NCBI GenBank assembly: GCA_036499305.1
Contig: DASYDZ010000209.1
Span: 12-64,011 of the forward strand
Origin: Candidatus Didemnitutus sp.
GTDB taxonomy: Bacteria; Verrucomicrobiota; Verrucomicrobiia; Opitutales; Opitutaceae
DNA: 64,000 nucleotides
Direction: 5' to 3'
Part shown: positions 7,593 to 54,462 of the stretch, piece after piece
Layout of the letters: every line of letters begins with the position of its first letter
How positions within the stretch are numbered: position 1 is the first letter of the stretch
Translations under genes and position numbers: made by a program
The notes under the pieces: generated by a model
What the model was told of the DNA's origin: nothing
Database searches by the model: none
Seen by the model: the letters and a program-made list of their open reading frames with translations, nothing else

Positions 7593-8198
7593 ATGAGTGC
7601 CAAAGCTCAGGAAGTTGCGCTGGACCGTTCGCTCGTCGACCGCTTTAAAGGCGGCGATTCGAGCGCGTTTGACCAATTGGTAACGCGCTATTGGGACCGC
7701 ATTTATGCGATGACGAACCAGCTTCTGCGCAATTCGCAGGATGCCGAGGAGGTCACGCAGGACGCATTCATCCGCGCCCACCGCGGCTTGGGGAATTTTC
7801 GGGGCGACTCCGCTTTCTCGACCTGGCTTTATCAAATCGCGACGAACCTCGCCCGCAACCGGTATTGGTACTGGTGGCGCCGCAAGCGCGACAAGTCGGT
7901 GTCGTTTGATGCACCCATCAGTTCCGAGAACGACAGCACGATCGCCGAGCTCATCCCGGCGGAGCAGGAGACTCCCGAGGATGCCACGGTCACGCAGGAG
8001 TTCGTGAACCGGGTGGGCGTGTGCATGGAATTACTGAACGAAAAGCACCGTGAGATCCTGATTCTGCGCAATGTCCAGAATCTCTCGTATGAGGAAATCG
8101 CCGAGATTCTCGGCATCAGCATCGGCACTGTCAAAAGCCGTATCGCCCGCGCGCGCGAAAGCCTGCGCGAAAAGTTAGGAGGAGAATTCCAGTCATGA
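7593..8198 (+). CDS. ECF RNA polymerase sigma factor (sigma-70 family)
   Basis: DAEEVTQDAF, FSTWLYQIATNLARN, LSYEEIAEILGISIGTVKSRIARAR. Alternative start 7548. Confidence 0.95.
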   Translation: MSAKAQEVALDRSLVDRFKGGDSSAFDQLVTRYWDRIYAMTNQLLRNSQDAEEVTQDAFIRAHRGLGNFRGDSAFSTWLYQIATNLARNRYWYWWRRKRDKSVSFDAPISSENDSTIAELIPAEQETPEDATVTQEFVNRVGVCMELLNEKHREILILRNVQNLSYEEIAEILGISIGTVKSRIARARESLREKLGGEFQS

Positions 8199-8833
8199 AA
8201 GACGCACGATTCATTGAGTTGATCAACCTGTACGTCGACCGGCAGATTTCGCCGGAAGACACGGCCGAGCTGGAGGCGGAAATCCAGACCCATGCGGCGC
8301 ACCGCCGCGTGTATCAGCAGTATTGCCACATGCACCGCGCCAGCAAACTGGTGTACGAGAGCTTCCGCGCCCACGCCGAGCCGCCGGCCTCGCCGGTCGC
8401 GCAGCCGGGCAGCATCGCCTATTTCGCCCAGCGCCGCCAGCGTACGCGCCGCAATTTCCGACTCGGGTCGCTTGCGGCCCTTGCCGCAGCGGCGTGCGCC
8501 GCCGTGTATTTCGGGCGGGTCGAGTTCGCCTCGCCCGCGGCCAATCCCGCCGGTGCGATCGCCCAGCATGCGATTGTTCCCGTGACGATTCCTGTCGCGA
8601 TGGTGCCGGCGAAGGCCGTGTCCGCCCGCCAGAATTACACCGCGCTCCTGAACGATGTCCGCCGCAGCGAGGCCAATGCGTTCACGCTGAACGAAACCGC
8701 CCAGGTGCAGCCGGTATCGCTCTTCGACGATGGCGTGTTTGCCCCGGCCCAGAACCTGTCGTCCGATACGCGGCGCCTCGGGCCGGCCAAGGCCAGGACG
8801 GCGGACCAGGCGGCATTCCAGTTCCAGCGCTGA
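8195..8833 (+). CDS. Putative anti-sigma factor (single TM)
   Basis: ATGA overlap with the sigma gene; N-terminal ELINLYVDRQIS helix, basic patch, then a TM helix. Confidence 0.65.
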   Translation: MKDARFIELINLYVDRQISPEDTAELEAEIQTHAAHRRVYQQYCHMHRASKLVYESFRAHAEPPASPVAQPGSIAYFAQRRQRTRRNFRLGSLAALAAAACAAVYFGRVEFASPAANPAGAIAQHAIVPVTIPVAMVPAKAVSARQNYTALLNDVRRSEANAFTLNETAQVQPVSLFDDGVFAPAQNLSSDTRRLGPAKARTADQAAFQFQR

Positions 8834-11341: not shown

Positions 11342-11421
11342 GAAAGTGTTACCTTGAACGAGAACAGGTAAGCCATTAGGCAAAGCACAGGTTTTAGGCC
11401 GGTTCACGCCCAAAATTCCCG

Positions 11422-12516
11422 ATGAGCATCACAATTCACACCGAGATCATGAATGACCTGTTGAAACTGGCCGTCGACAGCGCCGCCAGCGACATCGTGG
11501 TCAAGTCCAACAAGCCGGGCTACCTGCGGCTGTCCGGCCGGCTCCGGTCGGTGGAGATGGACGTCATCGCGCATGAGCAGGCCGAGGCCTGGGTGAACGA
11601 ACATGTGCCGGAGGTATTTCGATCGAACTGGGATCGCGACGGACAGGTTGACTTCGCCTACGCCGCCACGGATGTCGGCCGCTTTCGCGTCAACGCGTTC
11701 CATCAGCGAGGGACGGTGAGCATCGTCTTCCGCCACATCAAGAGCCGTCCCCCGACCTTCGAGGATCTGAAGCTCGAGTCGGAAGTGCTGATCAAGCTCT
11801 CGCAGGCCAAGGACGGAATTCTGCTGATCTGCGGAGCCACGGGCTCGGGCAAGAGCTCCACCATGGCGGCGATGATGAACTGGATCAACCAGAACATGGA
11901 CAAGCACATCGTGACGATCGAAGACCCGATCGAGTACACGTTTTCGGACGACAAGTCGCTTTTCCAGCAGCGGGAGATCGGCATCGACGTGCCCAGCTTC
12001 GAATTGGCGATCAAATCGGTGCTGCGCCAGAATCCCGACATCATCCTGATCGGTGAAATGCGCGATCGGGAGACGTTCGAGACCGCGATCTCCGCGGCCG
12101 AGACCGGTCACCTCGTGCTCTCCACCATGCACGCGGCCACGGTTGCGCAGTCGCTCACGCGCCTGTTCGAATTCTTCCCGCCGGAGCAGCTCGCGCAGGC
12201 CCGCCGCCAGATTGCGGGTTCGCTGCGTGGCTTCATCTGCCAGAAACTCATCCCCGCGATGGAGGGCGGCGGCCGATTCGCCGCCCACGAGGTCCTGGTC
12301 GCGGACACGACCGTGAGAAACCTCATTCTCGAAGGCCAGAACGACAAGATCCAGCAACTGCTCGATTCGTCGTCCGATGCGATGTCCAAGTCCTTCAACA
12401 AGGACATCTATCGCCTGATCAAGGACGGCAAGATCAGCAAGGCTGACGGATTGAGATTCTCGCCCAACCCGCCCGCCCTGGAGATGAACCTCAAGGGCAT
12501 CTTCTTCAAATCGTGA
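11422..12516 (+). CDS. PilT/PilU-family type IV pilus ATPase
   Basis: GRFRVNAF, Walker A GATGSGKSS, TIEDPIEY, ILIGEMRD, HLVLSTMHA; AIRNLIRE replaced by TVRNLILE. Confidence 0.92.
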   Translation: MSITIHTEIMNDLLKLAVDSAASDIVVKSNKPGYLRLSGRLRSVEMDVIAHEQAEAWVNEHVPEVFRSNWDRDGQVDFAYAATDVGRFRVNAFHQRGTVSIVFRHIKSRPPTFEDLKLESEVLIKLSQAKDGILLICGATGSGKSSTMAAMMNWINQNMDKHIVTIEDPIEYTFSDDKSLFQQREIGIDVPSFELAIKSVLRQNPDIILIGEMRDRETFETAISAAETGHLVLSTMHAATVAQSLTRLFEFFPPEQLAQARRQIAGSLRGFICQKLIPAMEGGGRFAAHEVLVADTTVRNLILEGQNDKIQQLLDSSSDAMSKSFNKDIYRLIKDGKISKADGLRFSPNPPALEMNLKGIFFKS

Positions 12517-13433
12517 TCCGATTTTGCGCGTTGGTGTTGCTGGCCGGCGTCACCATGGCCGGCGCGGCGGACGACGCAAAGGCGCCACTGTCGGAGACCA
12601 GCCGGCAGCTCGACCAGCTCCAGAGGCAGCCAGCCGCCGTCGCGGAGGGAGGGGATAATTCGCTCCGCAGCGCGCTGCCTGCGCTGGGCACGACGCTGAA
12701 GGGGCGCGAGGCGCTGCCTTCCACCGATCCCGGCACCGGCCTGAAGGACCGCAAGCTGAAGACTTCCAGGAAGAATCCGAATCAGAACTGGCTCGTCGAC
12801 GGTTACGAGAAGCTCGATCCCAAGGCGAACCACGACAAGGACGCGGTGCTCCTTCCGGTTGCCGCGGCACCGGCCGACGGCAGCAGGGACGACAAGACGG
12901 ACGAGACGTCCTCCACAAAAATTGACATCTTCTCGCTCTACGAAGCTGACGCCAAGGAACGCGCGTCCTCTGATCGTCCTTCCGAACACAGTCGGTCCAC
13001 CGCGGATCCATTGGCGCCATTCCTGCAGTCATGGCTGAACAAGGCGCCCGATCACGATCTGGTTTTGGCCGACGCTTCGAAGCCCGACGGTGCTCCCGGC
13101 GGCCTCCCGACGTTTGGCGCCGCTCCGGTTCCGGCGGCGGACGGGGCATCGACCGCATTGATTTTGGATTTTGGAAAAAGCGCGGGAGACGCACCATCGA
13201 ACCCGTATCTCGCCAGTCTTTCGCTTCCTTCGCTCGAAGCATTGACCCCGGCTTCGACCCCAGCGCTGGCTCCGATGCTTCCGGACTTCGGGACGCCACC
13301 TGTCCCGTCCAAAAACAATCTCGGTTTGCCGCCGGACAGCCTGCTGCCGGCGGGCAGGGTGGATGGCCGAAAACCGCCTCCTTCCCCGGCCGACGAGGAC
13401 CGCAAGTATTTCCCTCAGCTCAACCGCTTTTAG
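12513..13433 (+). CDS. Hypothetical secreted low-complexity protein
   Basis: GTGA overlap with the ATPase gene; signal peptide; P/A/S/D-rich; ends DEDRKYFPQLNRF. Confidence 0.7.
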   Translation: MIRFCALVLLAGVTMAGAADDAKAPLSETSRQLDQLQRQPAAVAEGGDNSLRSALPALGTTLKGREALPSTDPGTGLKDRKLKTSRKNPNQNWLVDGYEKLDPKANHDKDAVLLPVAAAPADGSRDDKTDETSSTKIDIFSLYEADAKERASSDRPSEHSRSTADPLAPFLQSWLNKAPDHDLVLADASKPDGAPGGLPTFGAAPVPAADGASTALILDFGKSAGDAPSNPYLASLSLPSLEALTPASTPALAPMLPDFGTPPVPSKNNLGLPPDSLLPAGRVDGRKPPPSPADEDRKYFPQLNRF

Positions 13434-13479: not shown

Positions 13480-14385
13480 ATGTCGTTGGCACTACTTTTT
13501 GCCGGTCAGGGAGCTCAAAAGGTCGGCATGGGTCGAAGCCTTTGCGACGTTTCCTATTCGGCTCGAGCGCTTTACGACCAAGCGGACCAGGTGTTGGGTT
13601 GGGCGCTGTCCCAGGTCAGTTTCGAGGGCCCGGAAACGGAATTGACCCAAACCAAGGCCTGTCAGCCGGCGCTGTTCGTGCATGGGCTGGCGACGTTGGC
13701 TGCATTCCAGGAATGTGGCCACGCCAAGGACCCTAAGTTCGCATTGGGATTGAGCTTGGGCGAGGTGACAGCGCTGACCGCCGCGGGTGTATTTGATTTT
13801 GCGACCGGACTGAAGGTGGTCGCGGAACGAGGACGGTTGATGCAGATGGCGTGCGAAAAGACGACCGGTGCGATGGCGGCGGTGATCGGTGAGGAACGAG
13901 CGAAGGTGGCGGAATTGGCGGCGGACTTCGGCGTCGAAGTCGCCAACTACAATGCCCCGGGCCAGGTCATTGTGTCGGGGGAGAAGGCCTCGATCGACAG
14001 GTTGGTGGCCGCAGCCAAGGACCGCGGATTGAAGCGCGTGATGCCGCTCAATGTCGCCGGTGCCTACCACAGCAGGTTGATGGAACCGGCGCGGGCCGGG
14101 TTCGCGGATTTCCTGCGCGGGGTCGCGTTTCACGCGCCAAAATTCACGGTTTTCAGCAATACGACCGGGCGGCCCGTCACCAGCGTCGAGGAGATCCGCG
14201 AGGCTCTCGTGCGTCAGGTGGTGTCCTCCGTACTTTGGGAGGACTGCATGCGAAACTGCGCGGCCGCGGGCGCGACCGGGTTCATCGAATGCGGGCCCGG
14301 TGCGGTGCTGGCCGGCCTGGCACGGCGCACGGAAAAGTCCTGGGTCGTGAAATCGGTGTCCGAAGCGGCGGACCTCGCGGCGTGA
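13480..14385 (+). CDS. fabD: Malonyl-CoA:ACP transacylase
   Basis: FAGQGAQ, QPALF, GLSLGE (catalytic Ser), AGAYHS. Confidence 0.95.
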   Translation: MSLALLFAGQGAQKVGMGRSLCDVSYSARALYDQADQVLGWALSQVSFEGPETELTQTKACQPALFVHGLATLAAFQECGHAKDPKFALGLSLGEVTALTAAGVFDFATGLKVVAERGRLMQMACEKTTGAMAAVIGEERAKVAELAADFGVEVANYNAPGQVIVSGEKASIDRLVAAAKDRGLKRVMPLNVAGAYHSRLMEPARAGFADFLRGVAFHAPKFTVFSNTTGRPVTSVEEIREALVRQVVSSVLWEDCMRNCAAAGATGFIECGPGAVLAGLARRTEKSWVVKSVSEAADLAA

Positions 14386-17979: not shown

Positions 17980-18912
17980 TCAGGCGCCCAGATGCTCCCG
18001 GATCGCACCTGTCACCTGCTCCCGGCCGTCTTCGATCAGGTAATGTCCGGCGTCAGCGAGATAGTCCGCCTTCGCCTCCGGTAGAATTGCGCGCCAGCGC
18101 TCGAAATAGTGGCGGTTGAAACAGAAATCCCGCGCGCCCCAGATGATCCGGATCGGACGCTCGCGCAGCTTCGGCAGGCTGGATTCGATCCCGGCCAGCG
18201 CGGAATCGGACGCTGTCCCCTTGCCGCTTGGAATATCCCGCACGAATCGATGAACCGCGATTCGGTTGGCCCAGGAATCGTATGGAAAGAGAAATCCATC
18301 CCGGACCGGCCCCGGCAATCTCTTGGTCACGGCCATCCAGGTCGCCGGCCCGGCAAATCCGTTCAGGCCCCGCACCAGCAGTTCGCCGATCACGGGTGCG
18401 CGACACGCCCGGATCCGCAGCGGGATCTTGGTGTCGGCGAAAGCCGCGGTATTCAGGATGACCACCTTCCCGAGTTTCTCCCCGAGCGGCAGCATTGCCC
18501 CCAGCCCGATCGGCCCTCCCCAATCGTGCACGATCAGATGGATTTTGCGCAAACCGAGGCGGTCCACCAGTCCGCGCAGATTGGCGATATGATTGGGCAG
18601 CGAATAATCATAATCCTGGGGCTTGTCGGACAGGCCGCAGCCGAGATGGTCCAGCGCCACGCAACGGATTGAATCGCGCAGCGCGAGGATCACGGACCGG
18701 TAGAAAAACGACCAGGTCGGATTTCCATGCACCATCAGGACCGCTTCGTCGCCCACTCCTTCGTCCAGATAACTCATCGTTCCGGCGGGCGTCTCATGTC
18801 GGCGCGGTGAAAACGGATAGATCGCCCGCAGCCATTCGGGCAGCTCCGCCGGCGGGCGGGCCACAGATCCGGATTCACTCCGCACAGTGTCAGCGGTCAC
18901 GGCGGTTACCAT
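17980..18912 (-). CDS. oleB: OleB-like alpha/beta hydrolase (haloalkane dehalogenase-like beta-lactone decarboxylase)
   Basis: HGNPTWSFFY, HDWGG (Asp nucleophile), DAGHY; start overlaps the oleA stop. Confidence 0.82.
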   Translation of the reverse strand: MVTAVTADTVRSESGSVARPPAELPEWLRAIYPFSPRRHETPAGTMSYLDEGVGDEAVLMVHGNPTWSFFYRSVILALRDSIRCVALDHLGCGLSDKPQDYDYSLPNHIANLRGLVDRLGLRKIHLIVHDWGGPIGLGAMLPLGEKLGKVVILNTAAFADTKIPLRIRACRAPVIGELLVRGLNGFAGPATWMAVTKRLPGPVRDGFLFPYDSWANRIAVHRFVRDIPSGKGTASDSALAGIESSLPKLRERPIRIIWGARDFCFNRHYFERWRAILPEAKADYLADAGHYLIEDGREQVTGAIREHLGA

Positions 18913-19943
18913 TCGAGCGCCAGCATCAGGCTGTTGATGCCGCTGCCGATGCCGAGCAGCGCGACCTTGTTCCCCTCGGCCACCGCCCCCGCCTGCACCG
19001 CCAAGGCCAGCGTGGCCGGCAATGCCGCCGAACCGGTGTTCCCGAGCGTTTCGAAAGTCGAATGGTCCCGCGCGAGGTCGAGCTCCAGGGCTTCGTACAG
19101 CTTGCGGCGATGCGTCGAGCCGACCTGGTGACAAATGAAGCGGTCGATTTGCGCGCGGGTCCACCCGGTCTCCTGCTCGAATTTCGCCCACGTCTCGGTG
19201 GCGGCCGCAATTCCGGCGATCAGGAGCTGTTCGGAATCGGTCTGCATCTCCAGGCCGTCCCCCGCGCTGTCGCCCTGGCAGAGCTCGCTGAATTGCGTCG
19301 CGGCATGAAACGCCCCCGCGACCACGCGATGCCGGCGCGCCCCCGGCGCCAGGAGATCCTCGTGGCAGACCACGGCTGCCACCGCGGCCGACCCGATCGT
19401 GAGATTGGCGAAGTATGGCTTGATCGTCTGGCGATCGAGCGGAGCGGTCAGGAGATGTTCAATCGTGCGGTCAACCAAGGGGCGTCCGTTTTCGCCGGAG
19501 ACGACGAGTCCGCAGCGAATCTGGTCGGCATCGATCATCGCCCCGACCGTCGCGATGCCGTTGAGGAAACCGAGGCACGCGTTGGAAAGGTCGAAAAGCT
19601 GCACGTTGGCCGGCAGTCCGAGCTGGCGATGAACAAACGAGGCCGTGGCGGGCTCGAGCATGTCGCGGCAGACGGCGGAATGGATCAGGACCTCCACCCG
19701 CCCGGCGCCGACCCGCGATTGCGCCAAAGCCGCCCTGCCCGCCAGGGCGCTGGCGGCGGACGGACGCATCCCGACCGGCCACATGCGGCGCTCCCGGATG
19801 CCGGTCATCAGTTCCAACCGGCCGAATGGAAGTTTCAACCGCTCGTAGACCGGCCGCAGACGTTCCTCGATCTGCGCCGAAGTCCACGTCTCGGCGGGAA
19901 GCGCGGTCGCGATCGATTCAATGCAGACGTGCCCGAATTTCAC
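18906..19943 (-). CDS. oleA: OleA thiolase-fold head-to-head condensing enzyme (FabH-like)
   Basis: GRLELMTGIRERR, LEPATA (Glu), SNACLGF (Cys), CHQVG (His), GNTGSAA (Asn). Confidence 0.9.
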   Translation of the reverse strand: MKFGHVCIESIATALPAETWTSAQIEERLRPVYERLKLPFGRLELMTGIRERRMWPVGMRPSAASALAGRAALAQSRVGAGRVEVLIHSAVCRDMLEPATASFVHRQLGLPANVQLFDLSNACLGFLNGIATVGAMIDADQIRCGLVVSGENGRPLVDRTIEHLLTAPLDRQTIKPYFANLTIGSAAVAAVVCHEDLLAPGARRHRVVAGAFHAATQFSELCQGDSAGDGLEMQTDSEQLLIAGIAAATETWAKFEQETGWTRAQIDRFICHQVGSTHRRKLYEALELDLARDHSTFETLGNTGSAALPATLALAVQAGAVAEGNKVALLGIGSGINSLMLALEW

Positions 19944-19961
19944 GGCGAAGTGCGGGCGCGC

Positions 19962-20798
19962 TCAGGATCGCGGGCCTGATTCCGGCCGCATCGCCAGCCG
20001 GACGATCTCCTGGTCGAAATAATTGCTCCCGAGCCCGGCGTCGGTGACGAGCGTCGTTCCATTGATGCCGCTGCTTCGCTCGCTCAGCAGGAAAGCGGCG
20101 ACGTTGGCCACCTCCTGCGTGGCGAGGTTGCGCTTCCGGAAGGTCAGCTTCTCCGCATACAGGTAGCTTTCGAGGTAACCGGGTATCCCGGCCGAAGCGC
20201 TGGTCTTGAGCGGTCCCGACCCCACGACGTTGAAGCGCACTTCGCCCGCCGCATTGAACGATTTCGCCAGGAAGCGGGCCGTTGACTCGAGCGCCGCCTT
20301 GATCGGACCCATGTAGCCGTAATTGTCCGGGGTCACCAGCAGCGACGAGATTCCGATCGTGACCACCGACGCTTTCGGCGCGAGATGCGGGCGAAAGGCG
20401 CGGGCGAGTTCGACGAGCGAAAAAGCCGAGATGGCGGTCGCCTGCAGGAAGTCCGAGCGTTGCGTTTCCACGAACGGCTTGAATCCGTCGCGGTAGTTGG
20501 CGAAGGCGATCGAATGCACCAGCCCGTGCAACGGGGCGAAGCCGGCGGCCACCACGTCGGCGGCGAGGCGGTCGCACGCGCCCTCCTTTTCAACGTCGCA
20601 GACAAAGACAGGGTTTCCCGCGAGCAGGGTTTCGAGTGATTTCCGCCGTTCCTCTGATCGGACGGCATAGACCACGCGCGCGCCTTCGGCTTCGAGCGTG
20701 GCCGCGACATGCCAGGCGACGCTCTTCCGGTTGGCGACGCCCTGGACGAGAAATGTCTTTCCGGCGATCTGCAGAAAATCGGTTGCCGAAGAGGTCAC
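19962..20798 (-). CDS. fabI: Enoyl-ACP reductase (FabI-like SDR)
   Basis: GVANRKSVAW, HSIAFA, YGYMGPIKAALES, GPLKTSAS. Confidence 0.9.
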   Translation of the reverse strand: MTSSATDFLQIAGKTFLVQGVANRKSVAWHVAATLEAEGARVVYAVRSEERRKSLETLLAGNPVFVCDVEKEGACDRLAADVVAAGFAPLHGLVHSIAFANYRDGFKPFVETQRSDFLQATAISAFSLVELARAFRPHLAPKASVVTIGISSLLVTPDNYGYMGPIKAALESTARFLAKSFNAAGEVRFNVVGSGPLKTSASAGIPGYLESYLYAEKLTFRKRNLATQEVANVAAFLLSERSSGINGTTLVTDAGLGSNYFDQEIVRLAMRPESGPRS

Positions 20799-20850
20799 GG
20801 TCCGGATGCTCCCTGGATCCTGCGGTGAAGGATGAATTGTGAGCTGGCTC

Positions 20851-21306
20851 TCATGCGGGCGACGATGTCGTGACCTGCCCTTCGGGTCGTTTCCAGGCCA
20901 CGGCGAAATCCACGGTCAGGACGCGCTTGTCGCCTTTTTTCATCGTGCCCTTGAGAAAGTGGAAATCTCCCACCGTCTCTGTGCGGCGTACCTCGATGTC
21001 CGTGGTGTCGCCCGGATAAACCGGCAGCCGGAAACGCACATCGGAAACCTTGCTCAGCAACGGGACGCCGCCCGGTCCGCCCGTCCCCGCCTGCAACCGG
21101 GCCATCAGCAGCGCGCCGGCCTGGAAGACCGATTCGCACAGGAGAACACCCGGTGTGATCGGTGCGCCCGGGTAATGCCCGCGATAGAAATCCTCTTCGG
21201 CGCGCCAGGTCCGGCGCGCCACGAGTGTTTCACCCTCGCGCGAGACGATCGAATCGACAAACAGGAACGGCGGGCGGTGCGGGATGAGTTTTTCGACTTC
21301 GTTCAC
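20851..21306 (-). CDS. fabZ: 3-hydroxyacyl-ACP dehydratase (FabZ/FabA family)
   Basis: LIPHRPPFLFVD, GHYPGAPITPGVLLCES; GTG start inferred. Confidence 0.9.
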   Translation of the reverse strand: MNEVEKLIPHRPPFLFVDSIVSREGETLVARRTWRAEEDFYRGHYPGAPITPGVLLCESVFQAGALLMARLQAGTGGPGGVPLLSKVSDVRFRLPVYPGDTTDIEVRRTETVGDFHFLKGTMKKGDKRVLTVDFAVAWKRPEGQVTTSSPA

Positions 21307-21313
21307 GAGGAGA

Positions 21314-22765
21314 TCAGGTTGGAGTGACGACGGCGGGACGGGAGCGGGCGGCCAGGTACTTGTCCACCTGGTTGGCGACAATGACGCCGTAATTGATCGT
21401 GCCAAGCCAGCCCGACATGATGAGTCCCACGGAACCGGCGTGATGGAGACCCGCCACCTGCGCCGGCAGGTCCATCGAGACCTTGAGGCCCTCGAACTTG
21501 GTGCCGAAGGAGGTGCCATTCCAGTGGCGCGTGTAGTACTCGATCGTTCGCGGCGTGGCCGCCTCCGTCCAGTCGATTTTCGCGCGCACCCCGGGGATGA
21601 AGCGCTCGAGACACGTGATCGATTCGTCGATCATCCGCTGCTTTTCCGCCTGGTATTGCTCCGGCGTCAGCGCATTCCAGTCGTCATAGCGCGCATTGAG
21701 CGACACGACCACGGTATAGCGGTCCGAGCCCGGACGTGTGTCCGGGTAATACATCGAAAACGTGCGGCTCGTGGTGTGCTGGTCGGTGAGCGCCTGGCTG
21801 GAAAAATGCGGCTCGTCGGACACGAAGACCAGGTCGCCGATGTGCGGCAGTGTCTCCCCCTTGCGGATGCCCAGATACACCTGGCAGGAGCTGCTGTTGA
21901 CGCGAATGGCGCGCGTGGCGGCGACGAAGTCCGGCGAAAAGTGCTCCTCGCCGGCCAGCTTGAGCACGGTGTTCTTGACGTTGGCATTGGAGAGGACGGC
22001 ATCGCACCGGATCGTGCGGCCGTTCGCGACGACGCCGCGCACCGCCCGCCGGCCGTCGACCTCCTCCACCATGACCTTTTCCACCACCACGTGTTTGCGG
22101 ACCTCCACGCCGTTTTTCTTGAGCTCGGCCGCCATCTTGCGAATCAGGACGTCCGACCCGCCGCGGAACGTGTAGACGCCCTTGCTCATGAAATTGGAGA
22201 AAACAATTCCGAACGTGATCGCCGGATCGTCGAGGGTTGATCCGTTCGCGTAGGCAATCGGCTCCATGAGCAGGCGCTTCACATCGTCGCGTCCCGGGAA
22301 ATAGCGTTCGAACATCGCCCCGGTGGTCTCGGGGTTGTTGTCATAGAAGTTCATCGCCCGGAGATCGGCGAAAAACAACTCCACCGTCGCGTGGGGCACG
22401 CCAAATTTCTCCTGCAAAAGACGCGTGAAGTCCTCCCGGTCGAAGGTCGTGTCGATCTGGAACTGCGGGTTGATGAACCGTACGCCCTTGAGCTGCACGA
22501 TCGAATCGGCGATGTCCTGGCTCCAGTATTTGCGGACGGACTTGATCATCCCGATCGGGAACCCGTGCAGAGAGATGTCGAAGATGTGCCCGCCCTTTCG
22601 CGTGAACCAGGTGGCCAGGCCGCCCAACTGGTAATGGTGTTCGAGCAGCAGCACGCGATGGCCGCATTTGGCCAGCACGTTGGCCCCGGTCATGCCGCCC
22701 AAGCCGCTCCCGACGACCACCACGTCGTAGTGGTCGTCGATGCCTTTAAGCCAGTCGTAGCCCAT
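21314..22765 (-). CDS. Phytoene-desaturase-like (CrtI-type) FAD-dependent oxidoreductase
   Basis: VVGSGLGG dinucleotide motif, [22 protein letters not shown]; inside the fab/ole operon. Confidence 0.85.
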
Positions 22766-22802
22766 GGATGCCCGAAGCTGTGGACCTCGGGCCCCGCGCA
22801 AC

Positions 22803-23669
22803 TCAGAGTTTCAGCGCGCGGAGGTAGGCGATGCTTTCCGGAATGCACTTCAACGGGTCCGGAGTCTCGTCTTCGATGAAATAGTGACGGATCCCGATCT
22901 TCTGGGCCGTCGAGAGGACGGCTTTCCAATCGATCTCGCCCTGCCCGACCGAGACATTATCGGTGGCCGGCGAGGTGGCCCCGTGGTTGACGTCACGCGG
23001 CGCTCCCTTGCGGAGGTCCTTGACGTGCATCAGCACCCAGCGGTCCGGGTATTTCTTGAGCATCGCGACCGGGTCCTGCTCGGCGTGGTAGACCCAGAAC
23101 ACGTCCATCTCGAGGGCGAAGTTCTTCGCCGTGGTGCCCTCGATGAGGATGTCGAAGGCCGTTTTGCCGTTCTCGATGTTCGGCACGAATTCGTAGCCGT
23201 GAGGATGGTAGGCAAAGCGGATGCCAGCCTCCCGGAAGGCCGCGCCCCATTTTTCGAAATTGGCCGCCGCTTCATGGGCGAGGGCGGCGGAAAGCGCGTC
23301 GCCCTGGTGGGGAATCCACGGGACGACGACGTATTTGACCTTCAACGCCTTGGCATTGGCGAGGGCAAGAGGCAGGTCCTTCTGCAATTGCTCATAACCG
23401 AAATGCACGCTGACCGCCTCCAGTCCGCGGCTCTGCACCATCTTGAGGTATTCCGCGGCCGGAACGCTGCTGATGCCCGCGGCCTCGATTTCCCTGATGC
23501 CGTATGCCTTGATCTGGTCGAGCGCCGCACCCTGGTCCTTCTTGACGATGTCGCGCAGGCTCCAGAGCTGGAGGCCGATGTGATCATGGAAATCCACGGA
23601 GGCGAAGGCGGAGGTGGCAATGAAGCAGGCGCCGAGAGCGGCGCGCAAGGGATAACGCAGCAATTTCAT
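22803..23669 (-). CDS. Sugar phosphate isomerase/epimerase-family TIM barrel with signal peptide
   Basis: [33 protein letters not shown]; N-terminal signal peptide. Confidence 0.88.
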
Positions 23670-23698
23670 AATGGGGTTCCGGAAGTTTGAATCCCTGA

Positions 23699-25111
23699 TC
23701 ACGTCTTTTGCAAGATATGATAGTTGGCCATTGAGATCCCGCTCAGCATCGCGCCGATGATGCCGAGAAATCCCTGGTCCGTGCCGCAAAGATAGACGTT
23801 CCCCAGATTCGTCCGGCCGTCGCGAATCTTGTCCGGCGCTCCATAAATCGCGCCCTGCAGATGGCCGGTGAATTTTTCCACCGTTCGCGGCGTGAACATG
23901 TCGCTCGTGACCAGGCGCGAGGCGAGCACGCCATCGTCGACCGGCGGCAGGAAGCGGCGCGCGCTGCGCTGGATGGCGGCGAACCATCGTTCCTTCGCCG
24001 CGCGATAATCGGCCTCCCCCAGCCCAATCCAGCGATCATAGTTCGCCAGGCAGGTGGTGCGAACGAGGCCTTCGGGCAGGTGTTGGTCCCCGAAGTCGAA
24101 ATTGTTCGGCAGGCAGATCACTCCGCTGCGCGGATCGACTTCATCGCCGGGCCGCCGATAGGCAAAGCGGGCGGAGTCGTTGAAAAAGACAATCGTTTCG
24201 TCTCCCCATCCCCACGCCGCCGGTTCCGCGGAAAACACCGAGATCGTCTCGACAAACGACAGGCGCCCGATCGCGCCGGTCGTGGCCTCCAAGGACTCCC
24301 CGCAGAGCCTGCGTGTTTCCGCGGCTCCGGCGGAAGAAAGCACGTGGGCGGCGGTGACCGTTTCGCCGGTCTCGAGCTCGAGAGCCGTGGCGTGGTGCGC
24401 ATCGTGAATGATCCGGCGCACCCCGCATTTCATGCGTCGCTCGCCGCCGGCCGCCCGGAATTTCTCGAGCAGGACGCGGACGATGGTTCGCACACCCTCA
24501 AGCGGGCGGGAGAAGCCCTCGAGAAACAGCGCCTTGAACATGATCACGAACTGCGCGAAATCCATGTCATCCTCCTGCGCACTGCCATAGTACATCAGCG
24601 GGCAGAGGAGCATTTCCGTGAGAAGAGGATCAGACAGGTGTCGCGCGACGATCGCGCGAGCCGACTCCGCCTTCGCATCCAGCGCGGTGTCGTTGTATGC
24701 GCGGACCAGGGCCACCAGCGACCGCCAGCCGTCGATCTGCTGCGGAAAACGGGCCGCCACCTCGGATTCGAGCAGAGCGTAGTCATTGCTGAACCGCAGC
24801 GTGCCGTCGGGAAACGACACGCGGGAACGTTTCTGCGGACACAGGGCGAACTCCTCGCGGTCAATCCGCAGTTGCCGCAGGATTTTGCCGAGCGGTGTCC
24901 CTTTCACGCCCGGGGGAACGAAGTTGGTCAGCGCGTGCAGGCCGACATCAAACTTCCGGCCCCCGAAACTGTAGAAGCTGTTCAGGCCGCCGGGCGCGTT
25001 GTGGCGTTCGAACACGCAGACGCGTTTGCCGAAATGGGCCAGGCGGATACCGGCGGCCAATCCGGACATGCCCGAACCGATGATCGCCACATCGTAGTGG
25101 GAATCTTTCAT
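23699..25111 (-). CDS. Phytoene-desaturase-like (CrtI-type) FAD-dependent oxidoreductase
   Basis: IIGSGMSGLAAG, FERHNAPGGLN, FTPRTVEKFTGH, YLCGTDQGFLGIIGAMLSG. Confidence 0.85.
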   Translation of the reverse strand: MKDSHYDVAIIGSGMSGLAAGIRLAHFGKRVCVFERHNAPGGLNSFYSFGGRKFDVGLHALTNFVPPGVKGTPLGKILRQLRIDREEFALCPQKRSRVSFPDGTLRFSNDYALLESEVAARFPQQIDGWRSLVALVRAYNDTALDAKAESARAIVARHLSDPLLTEMLLCPLMYYGSAQEDDMDFAQFVIMFKALFLEGFSRPLEGVRTIVRVLLEKFRAAGGERRMKCGVRRIIHDAHHATALELETGETVTAAHVLSSAGAAETRRLCGESLEATTGAIGRLSFVETISVFSAEPAAWGWGDETIVFFNDSARFAYRRPGDEVDPRSGVICLPNNFDFGDQHLPEGLVRTTCLANYDRWIGLGEADYRAAKERWFAAIQRSARRFLPPVDDGVLASRLVTSDMFTPRTVEKFTGHLQGAIYGAPDKIRDGRTNLGNVYLCGTDQGFLGIIGAMLSGISMANYHILQKT

Positions 25112-25149
25112 GACCGTGGAACCGCCGAAGGGCGGCAGGCCCGCCGAAA

Positions 25150-25404
25150 TCAGGCCTTGGGCACGAACTTCGGCGTCAGGTAGTCGGCGCAGCTGTCAAG
25201 CGACGCCAATTGCGTGTAGTCCGCCTCCGGCACCTCAATGCCGTGACGTTTCCGCAATTCCATTACGATATCGAGAAAGTCCATCGAATCGAGCTGGAGC
25301 TGGTCGCGCAGGCGGACGTTCGGCTTCACATCGCTCAAGTCCTCGTCGGGCGCGATGTCAGAGATGATGTCGATTACCAGCTTCCTGCACTCGTCTTTCG
25401 TCAT
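25150..25404 (-). CDS. Acyl carrier protein
   Basis: 84 aa, acidic, LQLDSMDFLDIV (phosphopantetheinyl Ser). Confidence 0.93.
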   Translation of the reverse strand: MTKDECRKLVIDIISDIAPDEDLSDVKPNVRLRDQLQLDSMDFLDIVMELRKRHGIEVPEADYTQLASLDSCADYLTPKFVPKA

Positions 25405-25418
25405 GGATGGTCGGTGTT

Positions 25419-26657
25419 TTAGTCGGCGAAGCGCTTGATGATGAGCGTTGAATTGATTCCGAGCATACCAAAGGAATTATTAAGGATGGCGTCAACCCGT
25501 TTAACGGAGCGGGGTTGGTTGAGCACCAGGCCGGGGATATCACATTGGGGATCAAGCTCATCGACATTGATGGTCGGGTGCACCACGCGATCCTCGAAAC
25601 TGGGCAGATTGCCCGCCAATTCGAGGGCTCCGGCGGCCCCCATGGCATGGCCGATGAAGCTCTTGGTATTGTTGATTGCGGCCGGTTCCCGGCGCTCGCG
25701 GAATACCGCGGAAATCGCCACGCATTCCTGGATGTCGCCCTGCGGAGTCGAGGTGGCGTGGGTGTTGACGATGTCGATGTCGTCCACGGTCATCCGGGCC
25801 TTCGTCAGGGCGCGGCGGACGCATTCGGCCTGGCGCTCCGGATTCGGCAGCACGTAGTCGGTGGCGTCCGAATTAACGCAATAGCCCGCGAGTTCGCCAT
25901 AGATCCGGGCTCCCCTCGCCTTCGCATCGTCCAGTCGCTCGAGCGTGTAAATGCAGCCGCCTTCGGAAATGACGATGCCGTTGCGGGCCTTGTCGAACGG
26001 CCGGCTCGCCTTGGTGGGGTCCACGTGCGACGCGAGCGCATTCTGGCTTTTGAATCCGGCAAAGATCCCGAACGTCTGCGGGCTTTCGCTGACGCCGCCG
26101 CCGAACGCAAAGTCCACCTCGCCCAGGCGCAGCATTTGCGCGGCGTGGATCAGGCCCATGTTGCCGGCGGCGCAGGCCGCCCCGATCGTGTACGCGGGAC
26201 CAGTCGTGCCCAGGTTGAGCGACACCTCGCCCGCCGGGCTGTTGGCCACCGTGCGCGGGTTATGGTGGTGGGTCCAGAACTTCGTGTCGTAATTGAATTT
26301 CGAAATGTTGTAGACCTCGTTCTCGGTCTCGACGTTGCCGTGCTCGGTGATCCCGAGAAAAACACCGATCCGGCTGCGATCGCGGTTCTCGAGCGAAACC
26401 CCGGAGTCGGCGAGCGCTTCCCGCGCGCAGTAGATGCTGATGCTGCCCGCGCGCGTGCCGATCCGGACATCCTTCTTGCGCTGGTGCTTCAACGGATCGT
26501 AGCTGCACAACCCCGCCGGCCAGCGGCCCATGTAGCGCACGTCCGTCATCGAGATGCCGGAGACGCCCGCGAGCAGGTTGCGCCGGAATTCGGCGATATT
26601 GTTTCCGTTCGGCGCGGTCAGGCCGATGCCGGTGATCACGATGCGGGCGAGGTCCAT
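25419..26657 (-). CDS. fabF: Beta-ketoacyl-ACP synthase (FabF/FabB family)
   Basis: IVITGIG, AACAAG (Cys), HATST and GHAMGAAG (His/His), NNSFG. Confidence 0.92.
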   Translation of the reverse strand: MDLARIVITGIGLTAPNGNNIAEFRRNLLAGVSGISMTDVRYMGRWPAGLCSYDPLKHQRKKDVRIGTRAGSISIYCAREALADSGVSLENRDRSRIGVFLGITEHGNVETENEVYNISKFNYDTKFWTHHHNPRTVANSPAGEVSLNLGTTGPAYTIGAACAAGNMGLIHAAQMLRLGEVDFAFGGGVSESPQTFGIFAGFKSQNALASHVDPTKASRPFDKARNGIVISEGGCIYTLERLDDAKARGARIYGELAGYCVNSDATDYVLPNPERQAECVRRALTKARMTVDDIDIVNTHATSTPQGDIQECVAISAVFRERREPAAINNTKSFIGHAMGAAGALELAGNLPSFEDRVVHPTINVDELDPQCDIPGLVLNQPRSVKRVDAILNNSFGMLGINSTLIIKRFAD

Positions 26658-26723
26658 GCTCAAGGTCCGGATGAAAACAGATTTGCCTAGCCTATGGCTT
26701 CGGAAAATCAATAACTGTCTCCC

Positions 26724-27734
26724 ATGAAAGTGCTCGTCGCCGGCGGGGCCGGCTATATCGGCAGTCATTGCGTGCGCCAGCTCATGGCGGCGGGTCACGT
26801 GCCGGTTGTGGTCGACAACCTCGTCTACGGGCACCGCGCGGCGCTGCCGCCGGCGGTTCGTCTGCACGAGACGAATCTCGGCGACGGCGCGGCGATGGAG
26901 CACATCCTCACGACCGAGAAAATCGACATCGTCATGCATTTTGCGGCGTTCTGCTATGTGGGCGAATCGGTGACGAATCCGCTCAAATACTACCGCAACA
27001 ATGTCGCCGCCACGCTTTCGCTCGTGGAGGCCATGATGCGTTCCGGGGTGCGAAAGATGGTGTTCTCGTCGACCTGCGCGACGTTCGGCGTACCGGAAAA
27101 AATGCCGATGGACGAAACCCTTCCCCAGGCGCCCATCAATCCCTATGGCCAGACCAAGCTCGACGTCGAAAATCTCCTGAAGGCGACCGCGCACGCGAAC
27201 GGTCTCAGTTTCGCGGCGCTGCGCTACTTCAACGCTTCCGGGGCGGCCGAGGATGGTGCGATCGGCGAGGACCATGACCCGGAGTCGCATTTGATTCCCC
27301 TCGCGATCGGGGCGGCGCAGGGCATCCGCCCGGCGTTGAAGGTATTCGGCACGGATTATCCGACGCCGGACGGAAGCTGTCTGCGCGATTATGTCCACGT
27401 GGACGATCTGAGTCGCGCCCACATCGCCGTTTTCGAACGCCTGGCGACGCCGGGCGCGCAGCTTTTCTATAATCTTGGCACCGGGACGCCGACTTCGGTT
27501 TTCCAGGTGATCGCCGCCGTCGAAAAGGCGTCCGGGCTCAAGGTGCCCTACTCGACCGCGCCGCGACGGGAGGGCGATCCGCCGGCGTTGTATGCCGATG
27601 CGGCAAAGGCGCGCCGGGAACTCGGCTGGCAGCCCAGGTTCGCCACCATCGAGTCGATCGTCGAAACCGCCTGGCGGTGGCACAAGGCCCACCCCAAGGG
27701 ATTTGTGCGGGAGAGCGAACGGGTTTCCGGGTAA
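26724..27734 (+). CDS. galE: UDP-glucose 4-epimerase
   Basis: GGAGYIGSH, HFAA, GESV, YGQTK, LRYFNA, RDYVHVDDL. Confidence 0.95.
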   Translation: MKVLVAGGAGYIGSHCVRQLMAAGHVPVVVDNLVYGHRAALPPAVRLHETNLGDGAAMEHILTTEKIDIVMHFAAFCYVGESVTNPLKYYRNNVAATLSLVEAMMRSGVRKMVFSSTCATFGVPEKMPMDETLPQAPINPYGQTKLDVENLLKATAHANGLSFAALRYFNASGAAEDGAIGEDHDPESHLIPLAIGAAQGIRPALKVFGTDYPTPDGSCLRDYVHVDDLSRAHIAVFERLATPGAQLFYNLGTGTPTSVFQVIAAVEKASGLKVPYSTAPRREGDPPALYADAAKARRELGWQPRFATIESIVETAWRWHKAHPKGFVRESERVSG

Positions 27735-41430: not shown

Positions 41431-42303
41431 CTATCCGACGGCGGCGGCCATCGCCTTCGCCTTCCGGCGTCCATGCAGTCCGGTGAGCAGCGCCCCGAGG
41501 CGGTCCCTCATCTCGAGGCGGCTGACAATCTGGTCGATCAGGCCGTGCTTGAGCAGAAACTCGGCGGTCTGGAAGCCCGGGGGCAGGGTTTGCTTCGTGG
41601 TCTCCTTGATCACGCGCGCACCGGCGAAACCGATCATCGCCCCGGGCTCGGCGAGGATGATGTCCCCCAGCGTCGCGAAGCTGGCGGTGACGCCGCCGGT
41701 GGTCGGATGAGTCAGGACGGAAATGTACGGCTGCCTGGCCTCGGACAACCGGCCGAGCGCCGCGCTCGTCTTGGCCATCTGCATGAGGCTGAAAATCCCC
41801 TCCTGCATCCGCGCGCCGCCGGACGAACTGACAACGATGCACGGAATCTTCCGTTCCCGGGCGCGTTCGATCGCGCGCGTGATCTTCTCCCCGACCGCCG
41901 CGCCCATCGCGCCGCCGCAGAAGCGGAAATCCATCACGGACAGCGAAACCGTGTGGCCGTGAATCTTGCCGACGCCGCAGATCACGGCCTCGGGCAATCC
42001 GCTTTCACTTTCGTAGCGTTTGAGGCGGTCCGGGTACTTCGCCGAGTCCACAAACTTCAGCGGGTCGGCCGATTTCACCCCGGCGTCGTGTTCCTCGAAA
42101 ACGCCGTCGTCGACCAGGGAGGTGATCCGCTGCCGGCAGCCAATCGGGAAATGATAGCCGCTCTTCGGCACCACCATCAGGTTCTGCTCCAGGTCCTTGT
42201 TGAACACGATCTCGTCCGAGATCGGGCACTTGGTCCAGAGTCCTTCCGGGATGTTCTTGCGCTTCCTGGGCGCCGACATCGGAGGTTTCGTAAAATGCGT
42301 CAT
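41431..42303 (-). CDS. accD: Acetyl-CoA carboxylase carboxyltransferase beta subunit
   Basis: LWTKCP, MDFRFCGGAMG, SGGARMQEG, PTTGGVTASFA. Confidence 0.97.
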   Translation of the reverse strand: MTHFTKPPMSAPRKRKNIPEGLWTKCPISDEIVFNKDLEQNLMVVPKSGYHFPIGCRQRITSLVDDGVFEEHDAGVKSADPLKFVDSAKYPDRLKRYESESGLPEAVICGVGKIHGHTVSLSVMDFRFCGGAMGAAVGEKITRAIERARERKIPCIVVSSSGGARMQEGIFSLMQMAKTSAALGRLSEARQPYISVLTHPTTGGVTASFATLGDIILAEPGAMIGFAGARVIKETTKQTLPPGFQTAEFLLKHGLIDQIVSRLEMRDRLGALLTGLHGRRKAKAMAAAVG

Positions 42304-46277: not shown

Positions 46278-46334
46278 TCGGCGCGCACGTCCGTCATTTT
46301 CATGCGCCTGCCCTCGCGCAGGCGCGTTTCGTTT

Positions 46335-49879: not shown

Positions 49880-50629
49880 TCATCCCTCAGCTCGGCGGGC
49901 GGGACCGACATCTGTTTTGAGGATTCCGCGTTTGATGATCCTTTCCAGTGCCTCCTCCACGGAGGGATAGGGCTGACGCGGCGCGAGAACCATACTTAAG
50001 GGCGTGACAACCGTCATGGTCGATGTGGCTTTCGACCCCATCGATGCCCAGACCGTATCCATTCGCTCGCGGCCCAACTCCCGGCAGGATTCGATCATTT
50101 CGGCTTTGATTTGGTCGACCAGTGGAAGAATTAGGCCGTGCACATGCTCTAGATATTCGAGAGCCTTTTCACGAGTGGGGATCGTGCCCTTGTGGATAAC
50201 CGCATTTCGAAATTCGATCTGCTTTTGATCCAAAAGGGTTGGCTCGGTCCGGTTGTGAAGGACGTACGCTCCTACGAACATTCCGAGCTGTCGTTCAGAT
50301 TGCTTGCTCACAAGTTTCCATGCTTTTCCCACGTGAGAACCTGAGATTTTATGCTCCCGAAAAACCACCTTCGTGTAATACTCATAAAAGCGCTCCAGGG
50401 ATGAGGTAGCAGATGAGACCGCTTCCCTGTGGTAGGAATCTGCTATCGCGTTGAGCGCTATCTCGAAAAGCACCTCGAATTTGTCCTCTTGCCGGACCAC
50501 CACGTTTTTGTGCCCGACGCCGCATTCAAATTCGTACACGGAGGCTTCATTTGCGGGAAGAGAAACGAGATCGCGCTTCGCTCCCTCGGATTCAAAAAAA
50601 CATTTGGTGCAATAGAATCTTAACTTCAT
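49880..50629 (-). CDS. Hypothetical low-GC protein with N-terminal Zn-ribbon-like Cys/His and HEPN-like RNAVIH motif
   Basis: CTKC...CGVGH; helical core; FRNAVIH (R-x4-H). Confidence 0.7.
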   Translation of the reverse strand: MKLRFYCTKCFFESEGAKRDLVSLPANEASVYEFECGVGHKNVVVRQEDKFEVLFEIALNAIADSYHREAVSSATSSLERFYEYYTKVVFREHKISGSHVGKAWKLVSKQSERQLGMFVGAYVLHNRTEPTLLDQKQIEFRNAVIHKGTIPTREKALEYLEHVHGLILPLVDQIKAEMIESCRELGRERMDTVWASMGSKATSTMTVVTPLSMVLAPRQPYPSVEEALERIIKRGILKTDVGPARRAEG

Positions 50630-50931
50630 CGCCGCTCTCGCATACCTTGTCAGCGCGGCTGTCGAGTTCAACAAAAACCCCGCCGCGCGCACCAGACAAA
50701 TTCTTGGCCGTGGACGGTGCCAGCCGGGCGTCCTTCAACGCCGCCGGTCCCTCCGCCATATTCGAAGCCCGCGGCGCCAAGGCCTTGAGCGAGGGCACCG
50801 AAGTAGCCCGACGTAGGCAACCTCCAATCGCCAACTGCTTGGTTGCTACCCATCCATGAGGCAATTATCTCGAGGATCTACGGGTCGCGCCCAGAGCACC
50901 AACCAGTATAAACCGCGCAAGAAAGCCAGTT

Positions 50932-54453: not shown

Positions 54454-54462
54454 CGGGACACG

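Follow-up and report, generated by a model that had tools for sequence, protein, structure and literature searches.

We describe here a nine-gene operon that occupies positions 17980–26657 of a 64-kb stretch of DNA from Candidatus Didemnitutus sp., of the Opitutaceae (contig DASYDZ010000209.1 of GenBank assembly GCA_036499305.1; 64,000 nucleotides, referred to throughout as ‘the window’). The operon joins the parts of a fatty-acid synthase (FAS) of type II—a β-ketoacyl-ACP synthase (KS), an acyl carrier protein (ACP), a 3-hydroxyacyl-ACP dehydratase (DH) and an enoyl-ACP reductase (ER)—to two flavoproteins, FAD1 and FAD2, and to OleA and OleB, enzymes of head-to-head olefin synthesis. Judging from the sequences compared below, this cassette is the best candidate for polyunsaturated hydrocarbon synthesis in bacteria without the large polyunsaturated fatty-acid (PUFA) synthase, Pfa. 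We put at about even the chances that it is a dedicated, ACP-based type II synthase making an unsaturated chain for condensation by the Ole enzymes. More tentatively, and with the balance somewhat against the idea, FAD1 and FAD2 could be the first flavin-dependent 2,3- and 2,2-isomerases of enoyl-ACP to exist as discrete proteins, or O2-independent acyl-ACP desaturases, in a type II synthase for methylene-interrupted polyunsaturated chains that is independent of polyketide synthases (PKSs). The kinds of pathway combined here (type II FAS, PUFA and Ole) are known; what is new is the flavoprotein cassette joined to Ole.

The evidence that carries this reading comes from gene neighborhoods. Using a profile of distant FAD1 relatives, we collected the contigs of matches in Smithella, other Deltaproteobacteria, Planctomycetota, Nitrospinota and Chloroflexi (individual loci are given L numbers). 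In two deltaproteobacterial metagenome-assembled genomes (MAGs)—one of Smithella (L086) and one assigned simply to the Deltaproteobacteria (L091)—the gene order is KS-ACP-FAD1-OleA-OleB-OleC-OleD-FAD2-KR-DH-ER, KR being a ketoreductase. A complete oleABCD set thus lies between the two halves of the cassette, and this gene-neighborhood evidence strongly supports the view that the cassette and the Ole enzymes act on the same metabolite. OleC of L086 scores 490 and 482 bits with NCBIfam models for olefin β-lactone synthetase, and its OleD scores 401 and 368 bits with those for 2-alkyl-3-oxoalkanoate reductase; the corresponding calls in L091 are based on matching gene sizes and Pfam domains. All eight window proteins, leaving aside a TIM-barrel protein discussed later, have orthologues in L086 and L091, at 42–63% identity. 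Window OleA is 47% identical to the L086 and L091 OleA proteins, which precede OleB-OleC-OleD (42–47% over all the cassettes that have one), and window OleB is 46–49% identical to its counterparts in these two complete sets. An earlier note on this DNA, made from the sequence alone, had proposed that the FAS-like genes, the flavoproteins and OleA/OleB form one functional unit, and the embedding of oleABCD in the cassette bears this out.

The synteny survey that had been suggested as a check shows the core cassette recurring in Planctomycetota, Chloroflexi and Nitrospinota as well as in Syntrophales-like Deltaproteobacteria. A 1.3-Mb metagenome contig with Smithella-like gene order (L090) carries KS-ACP-FAD1-OleA-FAD2-KR-DH-ER; a Chloroflexi contig (L087), KS-ACP-FAD1-FAD2-KR-DH-ER followed by a phosphopantetheinyl transferase gene; an 8.7-Mb Planctomycetota-like genome (L088), KS-ACP-FAD1-FAD2-DH-ER; a Nitrospinota contig (L089), KS-ACP-FAD1-FAD2-KR; and a Planctomycetota contig (L085), KS-ACP-OleA-like-KS-FAD1-FAD2. 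The KR, where present (L086, L087, L089, L090 and L091), is of the FabG type. Identities between the window proteins and their orthologues are 63–66% for KS (four other phyla), ~62% for ACP (Smithella and Planctomycetota), 48–53% for FAD1, 54–62% for FAD2 (five other lineages), 40–46% for DH and 52–58% for ER. Taken by themselves, the Chloroflexi, Nitrospinota and Planctomycetota or Planctomycetota-like cassettes give 64–66% for KS, 59–62% for FAD2 and 54–58% for ER. By these measures the core unit is KS-ACP-FAD1-FAD2-(KR)-DH-ER, conserved across five phyla at 40–66% identity.

That FAD1 and FAD2 flank oleABCD in L086 and L091 would also suit a scheme in which the flavoproteins act after the Ole enzymes, desaturating or isomerizing the finished long-chain olefin—a hydrophobic, phytoene-like substrate—rather than intermediates bound to ACP; long free hydrocarbons are, after all, substrates of CrtI-fold enzymes. 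We consider this highly unlikely. The FAD1-FAD2 pair is kept together with KS, ACP, DH and ER where the cassette has no ole genes nearby, and flavins, as a matter of general chemistry, do not readily dehydrogenate isolated, unactivated methylene groups. No feature of the family, moreover, is better conserved than the adjacency of ACP and FAD1: in almost all of the lineages looked at, ACP immediately precedes FAD1, even beside a FAD1 relative of 34% identity, the exception being the planctomycetal L085, where a β-ketoacyl-ACP synthase III (KASIII) and a KS come between them.

Several peculiarities of the distant cassettes deserve mention in their own right. In L085 (5821–12713) a short KS (324 aa), an ACP and an OleA-like KASIII (42% identical to window OleA) stand ahead of KS-FAD1-FAD2, and there is no DH, ER or OleB, OleC or OleD nearby; in some lineages, this locus suggests, the OleA-like protein may work as part of the synthase. 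In L090 an OleA gene (11383–12414) sits between FAD1 and FAD2 without OleB, OleC or OleD there. Just upstream of the Smithella cassette are two extra, divergent KS-like genes (L086:4368–6846, minus strand; 411 and 416 aa; identity to the cassette KS, 29% and 31%), which may be a pair of the KS/chain-length-factor (CLF) kind. And a MobB-like gene, for molybdopterin-guanine dinucleotide biosynthesis, directly follows ER in L086 (19297–19800), L090 (15904–16398) and L091 (19391–19885).

In the window itself, nine open reading frames (ORFs), all on the minus strand, fill positions 17980–26657. They are transcribed in the order KS, ACP, FAD1, TIM barrel, FAD2, DH, ER, OleA, OleB, and because the gaps between them are only 14, 38, 29, 37, 7, 52, 18 and −7 nt, they constitute one tight operon. 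Upstream, 66 bp (26658–26723) separate KS from a divergent galE gene, a divergence that is kept across the Opitutales, and the promoter presumably lies there; a scan for σ70-type consensus sequences found no match in this interval, and promoter and terminator scans in general were uninformative. Families were assigned with Pfam and NCBIfam models, using their curated cut-offs, and catalytic motifs were read off the translations. The co-oriented operon, the family assignments and the intact catalytic motifs reported in the earlier note all hold up under this analysis.

The FAS-like proteins are recognizable members of their families that score well under the equivalog cut-offs of the housekeeping enzymes. 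The first gene of the operon, at 25419–26657, encodes the KS, a FabF-like β-ketoacyl-ACP synthase II of 412 aa with both the N- and C-terminal ketoacyl-synt domains; it has the motif residues Cys/His/His and Lys, and scores 310 bits with the fabF model, for which the housekeeping equivalog cut-off is 494. The dedicated ACP (25150–25404; 84 aa) has a PP-binding domain and a DSM serine motif. The DH (20851–21306; 151 aa, with a GTG start) belongs to the FabA/FabZ family of Pfam, and has the His...Glu motif. Its best matches are FabZ models, at ~90 bits, under their equivalog cut-offs, and the Joint Genome Institute (JGI) annotation also flags it as ApeI-like. Its sequence matches in the PDB are FabZ proteins, a search that could not tell anammox FabZ from ordinary FabZ. 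The ER (19962–20798; 278 aa) has the Tyr-x6-Lys motif, an adh_short_C2 domain (193 bits) and scores of 125–164 bits with FabI models, again under the housekeeping cut-offs. The signature residues of type II elongation—the KS triad, the ACP serine, the FabZ His/Glu and the FabI Tyr/Lys—are thus all present. No malonyl transferase gene occurs inside the cassette; fabD lies apart, at 13480–14385 on the plus strand, as does accD (41431–42303, minus strand), and the separation of the operon from these housekeeping genes had been correctly noted before. A contiguous coaX, coaBC, panC and panB group at 53671–57219 (minus strand) is ordinary, although it supplies the phosphopantetheine precursor for ACPs.

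The FAD1 family comprises 292 clusters at 50% identity (E < 1e-30), and at least 597 matching stretches were confirmed among the species genomes of the Genome Taxonomy Database that were scanned. The best 80 of these, all of them from Opitutales, served as our sample, and genes were compared within it by tblastn. FAD1 has its nearest relatives in Didemnitutus (80% identity), followed by those in Lacunisphaera, Opitutus and Oleiharenicola (~71–73%). KS and ACP stand directly upstream of FAD1 in 58 of the 66 loci with enough flank, always beside the divergent galE, and the block FAD2-DH-ER-OleA-OleB follows in 24 of the 45 loci whose downstream flank extends to 8 kb or more. Cultured carriers include Oleiharenicola sp. 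Vm1, which has the full operon (L006; NZ_CP180537, at 2.479–2.501 Mb), Lacunisphaera limnophila, which has a FAD1 homologue, and Opitutus sp. GAS368. A JGI metagenome contig (L001) is nearly identical to the window; its DH gene (L001:13806–14408, against window 20700–21306) diverges near the contig end, with 89% identity and a different stop, which points to strain variation or to an assembly artefact at the contig edge.

A gene as widespread as this raises the thought of something more ordinary: that the cassette is a general anaerobic route to common monounsaturated fatty acids, standing in for FabA/FabB, FabM or FabX. The FabF-like KS would then elongate a cis-3-enoyl-ACP made by one or both flavoproteins, and OleA and OleB would condense ordinary monoenoic or saturated chains to C27–C31 mono- to tri-enes, in the manner of Xanthomonas or Chloroflexus. 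Nearly all Opitutales have FAD1, which stays at ~70% identity across the family, as expected if its function is a core one; in several phyla the cassette comes without ole genes; and there is a flavoenzyme, FabX, that makes cis-3-decenoyl-ACP. Isotope data, too, tie the hydrocarbons of Desulfotalea psychrophila to C16:1 and C18:1 (PMC2649909). Housekeeping synthesis of unsaturated fatty acids, however, has no need of a private ACP, DH and ER, nor of two different flavoproteins kept as a pair across phyla. It also leaves unaccounted for the oleABCD set embedded in the cassette in L086 and L091, and the C31:8 and C31:9 hydrocarbons that D. psychrophila makes without a Pfa synthase (PMC2649909). 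On balance we judge it unlikely.

The two flavoproteins are the parts that set the cassette apart. FAD1 (23699–25111; 470 aa) is the proposed enoyl-ACP isomerase or desaturase, and FAD2 (21314–22765; 483 aa) is a distant paralogue with 25% identity to it. Both have Amino_oxidase and NAD_binding_8 domains and a GxGxxG FAD motif, and PDB sequence searches with either gave matches at the level of the Rossmann fold only. An AlphaFold (AF2) model of FAD1, built from a 23-sequence alignment, has a predicted local distance difference test (pLDDT) score of 92.6. Its best folds in the PDB are the carotenoid desaturase 4REP (template-modeling score, TM, 0.76), CrtI (4DGK) and plant phytoene desaturase, with 14–18% identity to the solved CrtI-type structures. 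As modeled, then, FAD1 has the CrtI/CrtD fold, and FAD2 is assigned as CrtI/CrtISO-like at the level of sequence. We found no characterization of these flavoproteins in the literature.

The best-matching NCBIfam families of FAD1 and FAD2—carotenoid isomerase, CrtD, crtI_fam and HpnE—might be taken to mean that the two are common carotenoid or squalene-type enzymes which just happen to adjoin lipid genes. Their scores are 61–106 bits against cut-offs of 238–587, however, or 3- to 8-fold too low. FAD1 scores 60.6 and FAD2 77.2 bits with crtI_fam (TIGR02734; cut-off 238 bits), so that both fail its threshold, and the higher scores of FAD2 with carot_isom (106 bits) and CrtD (94 bits) are also far under the cut-offs. 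The 64-kb window has no crt gene (crtB or crtE) and no hpn gene; the synteny with KS and ACP extends over five phyla; and phytoene dehydrogenase-like genes from anammox bacteria did not complement crtI (PMC4790861). By score and by genomic context neither protein belongs to the carotenoid families. A role in carotenoid metabolism, the case that the earlier note had raised against its own proposal, is exceedingly improbable because both proteins fall far under the crtI cut-off and no carotenoid genes are nearby. Its description of the flavoproteins as ‘CrtI-like’ is right for the fold, going by the FAD1 model, and wrong if read as membership of the carotenoid families.

Between FAD1 and FAD2 lies a gene for a xylose-isomerase-like TIM-barrel protein (22803–23669; 288 aa), with an AP_endonuc_2 domain and weak similarity to IolE. 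Although it is co-transcribed with the rest, and had been counted as a component of the operon, we regard it as a secreted passenger outside the system. The reasons are that its N-terminus resembles a signal peptide, that its presence is sporadic (7 of the 37 Opitutales loci having both flavoproteins, with 46–54% identity as against ~70% for its neighbors), and that other, unrelated genes occupy the same junction elsewhere. It is not in the cassette of any other phylum examined. We also considered it as a flavin-dependent enoyl reductase or isomerase like FabK or FabX, and rejected this in view of the AP_endonuc_2 domain, the signal peptide and the sporadic occurrence. The FAD1/FAD2 junction has the character of an insertion hot spot in Opitutales loci L009–L046: besides the TIM barrel, its occupants include a secreted protein (~440 aa), a membrane protein, a response regulator and, in one form, an unrelated block of 5 kb (e.g. 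L012:11447–12766, L017:7200–12650 and L046:11434–12354).

The last two genes of the operon are, by homology, genuine members of the Ole pathway. The KASIII (18906–19943; 345 aa; NF006720, 435 bits) is of the OleA type, a thiolase-like enzyme of head-to-head Claisen condensation, and not FabH. It matches the OleA structures of X. campestris (3ROW, 4KU2) over its full length with an E value of 3e-60 and ~40% identity (FabH, ~1e-18), and equivalents of Glu117, Cys143, His285 and Asn315 are conserved in the alignment. The α/β-hydrolase that follows (17980–18912; 310 aa; Abhydrolase_1/6) is of the OleB type: it resembles haloalkane dehalogenases while scoring under their cut-offs, and has the Asp nucleophile (HDWGG) and the His (GHY) that characterize OleB. 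A 7-nt overlap joins the end of oleA to the start of oleB, and the two genes are adjacent in all 30 of 30 Opitutales loci.

On the interpretation that we prefer, these genes would specify a self-contained type II elongation module operating on its own ACP, with a KS, a FabZ-type DH, a FabI-type ER and the two flavoproteins of CrtI fold. It would borrow FabD, and in Opitutales FabG as well. Since FAD1 and FAD2 are the sole parts beyond a minimal elongation cycle, it is they that would create the distinguishing feature of the chain, and the most economical role for them is to process the trans-2-enoyl-ACP made by DH. To build up a methylene-interrupted n-3 chain like 16:4(4,7,10,13), from which C31:9 is established to derive, two carbons per cycle, would require, for every three cycles, one 2E→3Z shift, one 2E→2Z isomerization and one full reduction, a 1:1:1 need for enoyl processing that would match FAD1, FAD2 and ER. 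Redox-neutral, flavin-dependent isomerization of double bonds is known from CrtISO, from type 2 isopentenyl diphosphate isomerase and from the polyenoic fatty-acid isomerase of P. acnes, which is of the same fold class; in Pfa synthases, FabA-like DH domains perform both isomerizations. Alternatively, the flavoproteins might be O2-independent dehydrogenases (desaturases), as CrtI can be, although quinone- or O2-linked dehydrogenation of the kind seen in CrtI or UfaD would tend toward conjugated systems. Two such acyl-ACP-derived chains would go to OleA for condensation, and OleD, OleC and OleB would turn the β-keto acid into an olefin. OleA uses acyl-ACP in vivo (PMC6463001), and the C31:9 hydrocarbon of Shewanella is formed by OleA from two Pfa-made 16:4(n-3) chains (PMC6463001, PMC4882568). 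For Opitutaceae we predict a long-chain, C31:9-type polyunsaturated hydrocarbon as the final product or, should OleC and OleD really be missing, the ketone that corresponds to it. Of the earlier proposal of a dedicated ACP-based synthase feeding OleA, the linkage is upheld by synteny; the polyunsaturated product and the flavoprotein chemistry we infer.

A number of observations weigh against this interpretation. The operon has no ketoreductase gene, and neither the rest of the window nor the Opitutales loci supplied one by tblastn; without a KR in the cassette, FabG must be borrowed. In 20 of the 45 Opitutales loci with sufficient flank, mostly from Puniceicoccaceae, Cerasicoccus and Pelagicoccus with some from Opitutaceae, the block FAD2-DH-ER-OleA-OleB is not in the flank, and the halves KS-ACP-FAD1 and FAD2-DH-ER-OleA-OleB are thus separable in this order. 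No ole genes occur near the cassette in the Chloroflexi (L087), Nitrospinota (L089) or Planctomycetota-like (L088) loci, and because the cassette also occurs without them, coupling to Ole is lineage-specific. Searches by tblastn with Smithella OleC found no match in the window or within ±10 kb of the 80 Opitutales loci, and those with Smithella OleD found only galE-level similarity in the same regions. The matching of isomerases and reductase at 1:1:1 is logic, not data. Anammox homologues, likened to these genes by cluster description, gave no polyunsaturated fatty acids in Escherichia coli (PMC4790861, PMC10139942). Finally, both the product of the cassette and the roles given to the flavoproteins are predictions.

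The absence of oleC and oleD merits closer attention, because it leaves the Ole set of the window incomplete: what had been called oleA-oleB stands as to identity and catalytic residues, without the two partners in the window or near the 80 loci. Among the window and the 91 loci searched, oleC and oleD together occur only in the deltaproteobacterial clusters. The single AMP-binding gene of the window adjoins menC. The divergent epimerase gene at 26724–27734 was considered as a displaced OleD and rejected, being a true GalE (TIGR01179, 410 bits; OleD model, 58 bits). Surveys report oleABCD and olefin production in Verrucomicrobia and Opitutae, including Opitutae MAGs (PMC5673642, PMC7158056), and for this reason oleC and oleD are probably encoded elsewhere in the Opitutaceae genome.

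The cassette might instead build some other specialized acyl chain, such as a conjugated polyene formed by CrtI-like dehydrogenation beside an existing double bond, or another modified lipid tail. UfaD performs a dehydrogenation of this kind in furan fatty-acid synthesis, CrtI-type enzymes normally extend conjugation, and the closest folds to FAD1 are those of desaturases. Clusters without OleB, OleC and OleD, such as L090 and L085, suit this idea as does the window's own want of oleC and oleD; there the OleA-like KASIII would be a priming or chain-joining condensing enzyme and not an olefin-forming OleA of the classical sort. Yet window OleA has its catalytic residues intact, Glu117 included, and is translationally coupled to an orthologue of OleB with which it remains paired throughout the Opitutales loci, and the only substrate of OleB known to us is the β-lactone made by OleC. 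The conserved ER, in addition, favors partly reduced over fully conjugated chains. We give this alternative only a small chance.

An anaerobic PUFA route of this sort has been proposed before. In 2009, Rattray et al. reported pfam01593 ‘phytoene dehydrogenase-like’ genes from FASII clusters of Kuenenia (Kuste3336, Kuste3607) and of Desulfotalea psychrophila (DP1860, and the amine-oxidase flavoproteins DP2405 and DP2406, which are neighbors) (PMC2649909). The latter species has no PKS-type PUFA genes and yet produces the hydrocarbons C31:8 and C31:9, and a novel anaerobic route was proposed on that account (PMC2649909). When Javidpour et al. (2016) expressed anammox genes in E. coli, these failed to complement crtI and yielded no new lipids (PMC4790861), and in 2023 the function of the anammox genes was still called unknown (PMC10139942). 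What the earlier note said of this ladderane-cluster literature was correct (PMC2649909, PMC4790861). Its label of ‘poorly described system’ fits the flavoprotein chemistry better than the idea itself, published in 2009 (PMC2649909). A 2011 survey of pfa-like synthases listed Geobacter and Gemmata, and no Verrucomicrobia, Desulfotalea or Rhodopirellula (PMC3098273).

If the preferred interpretation is true, it would add a third route to polyunsaturated chains—anaerobic, and run from seven or eight genes in a compact and portable cassette. Established general routes number, to our knowledge, only two: O2-dependent membrane desaturases and the Pfa megasynthase. It would also provide a first function for a flavoprotein family with hundreds of sequence clusters in at least five phyla. 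It would account for C31:9-type hydrocarbons in bacteria without Pfa synthases, among them Desulfotalea and perhaps Opitutaceae and many Planctomycetes. Planctomycetes do make C31:9, and Opitutaceae strain TAV2 is reportedly a C31:9 producer too. A function would also fall to the ‘phytoene dehydrogenase-like’ genes in anammox lipid clusters, which would inform the ladderane problem, and compact parts would become available for the engineering of polyunsaturated lipids or hydrocarbons. With oleABCD embedded in some cassettes, a conserved FAD1-FAD2-ER trio and cultured carriers, the question is directly testable.

The rest of the window (GC ~64%) is taken up by housekeeping genes: purH, dapA/dapB, ruvA, lepA/lepB, guaB, purA, miaB, mpl, coaX/coaBC/panB/panC, priA and others. 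MiaB (46302–47750) is unrelated to the operon, which itself has no radical-SAM gene, and Rfam and tRNA scans of the window found a tRNA-Lys only. Between mpl and a DUF455 gene is a low-GC island (49880–51900; GC 0.55, against ~0.64–0.67 around it), possibly acquired horizontally, with two ORFs that have no Pfam match: one of 270 aa at 49880–50692 (minus strand) and one of 192 aa at 50932–51510 (plus strand). Three more ORFs have coding-like GC3 and no Pfam match, at 12513–13433 (plus strand, between a PilT-like ATPase gene and fabD), 7832–8569 (minus strand) and 57462–58340 (minus strand).

How does the cassette compare with known systems? Like the anammox and Desulfotalea clusters, to which we liken it by cluster description (PMC2649909), it has FabF, ACP, FabZ and pfam01593 flavoproteins; like that of D. 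psychrophila it has them as a pair (adjacent there, as DP2405 and DP2406), and the same hypothesis of an anaerobic route attaches to both. Unlike those clusters, the window operon has no radical-SAM, methyltransferase, membrane-protein or phenylacetyl-CoA-ligase genes, and in 2009 no connection with oleABCD was known. With CrtI, CrtD and CrtISO, the cassette flavoproteins share an FAD Rossmann domain and the amine-oxidase/CrtI fold, and they differ in keeping company with KS and ACP genes rather than with crtB or crtE.

The resemblance to the OleABCD systems of Xanthomonas, Shewanella and Micrococcus lies in the catalytic residues of OleA, in the haloalkane-dehalogenase-like OleB directly after it, and in the orthologous clusters L086 and L091, which carry all four ole genes. 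The window, by contrast, has oleA and oleB only, and these share an operon with a private KS, ACP, DH and ER and two flavoproteins, an arrangement not found in the accounts of PMC6463001, PMC7064751 and PMC7158056. The systems that combine Pfa with Ole to make C31:9, in Shewanella and Geobacter bemidjiensis, likewise set a dedicated synthase with its own carrier protein beside ole genes, and it is presumed there to supply a special acyl-ACP to OleA (PMC6463001, PMC3098273, PMC4882568). The 64-kb window has no PKS or pfa gene, and its largest ORF is PriA, with 924 aa. In catalytic inventory (KS, ACP, KR, DH and ER) the Pfa synthase and the cassette are alike. In architecture they differ: the cassette proteins are all single-domain, discrete type II proteins, without tandem ACPs, CLF or FabA-like DH domains, and two CrtI-fold flavoproteins stand where Pfa has its isomerizing DH domains.

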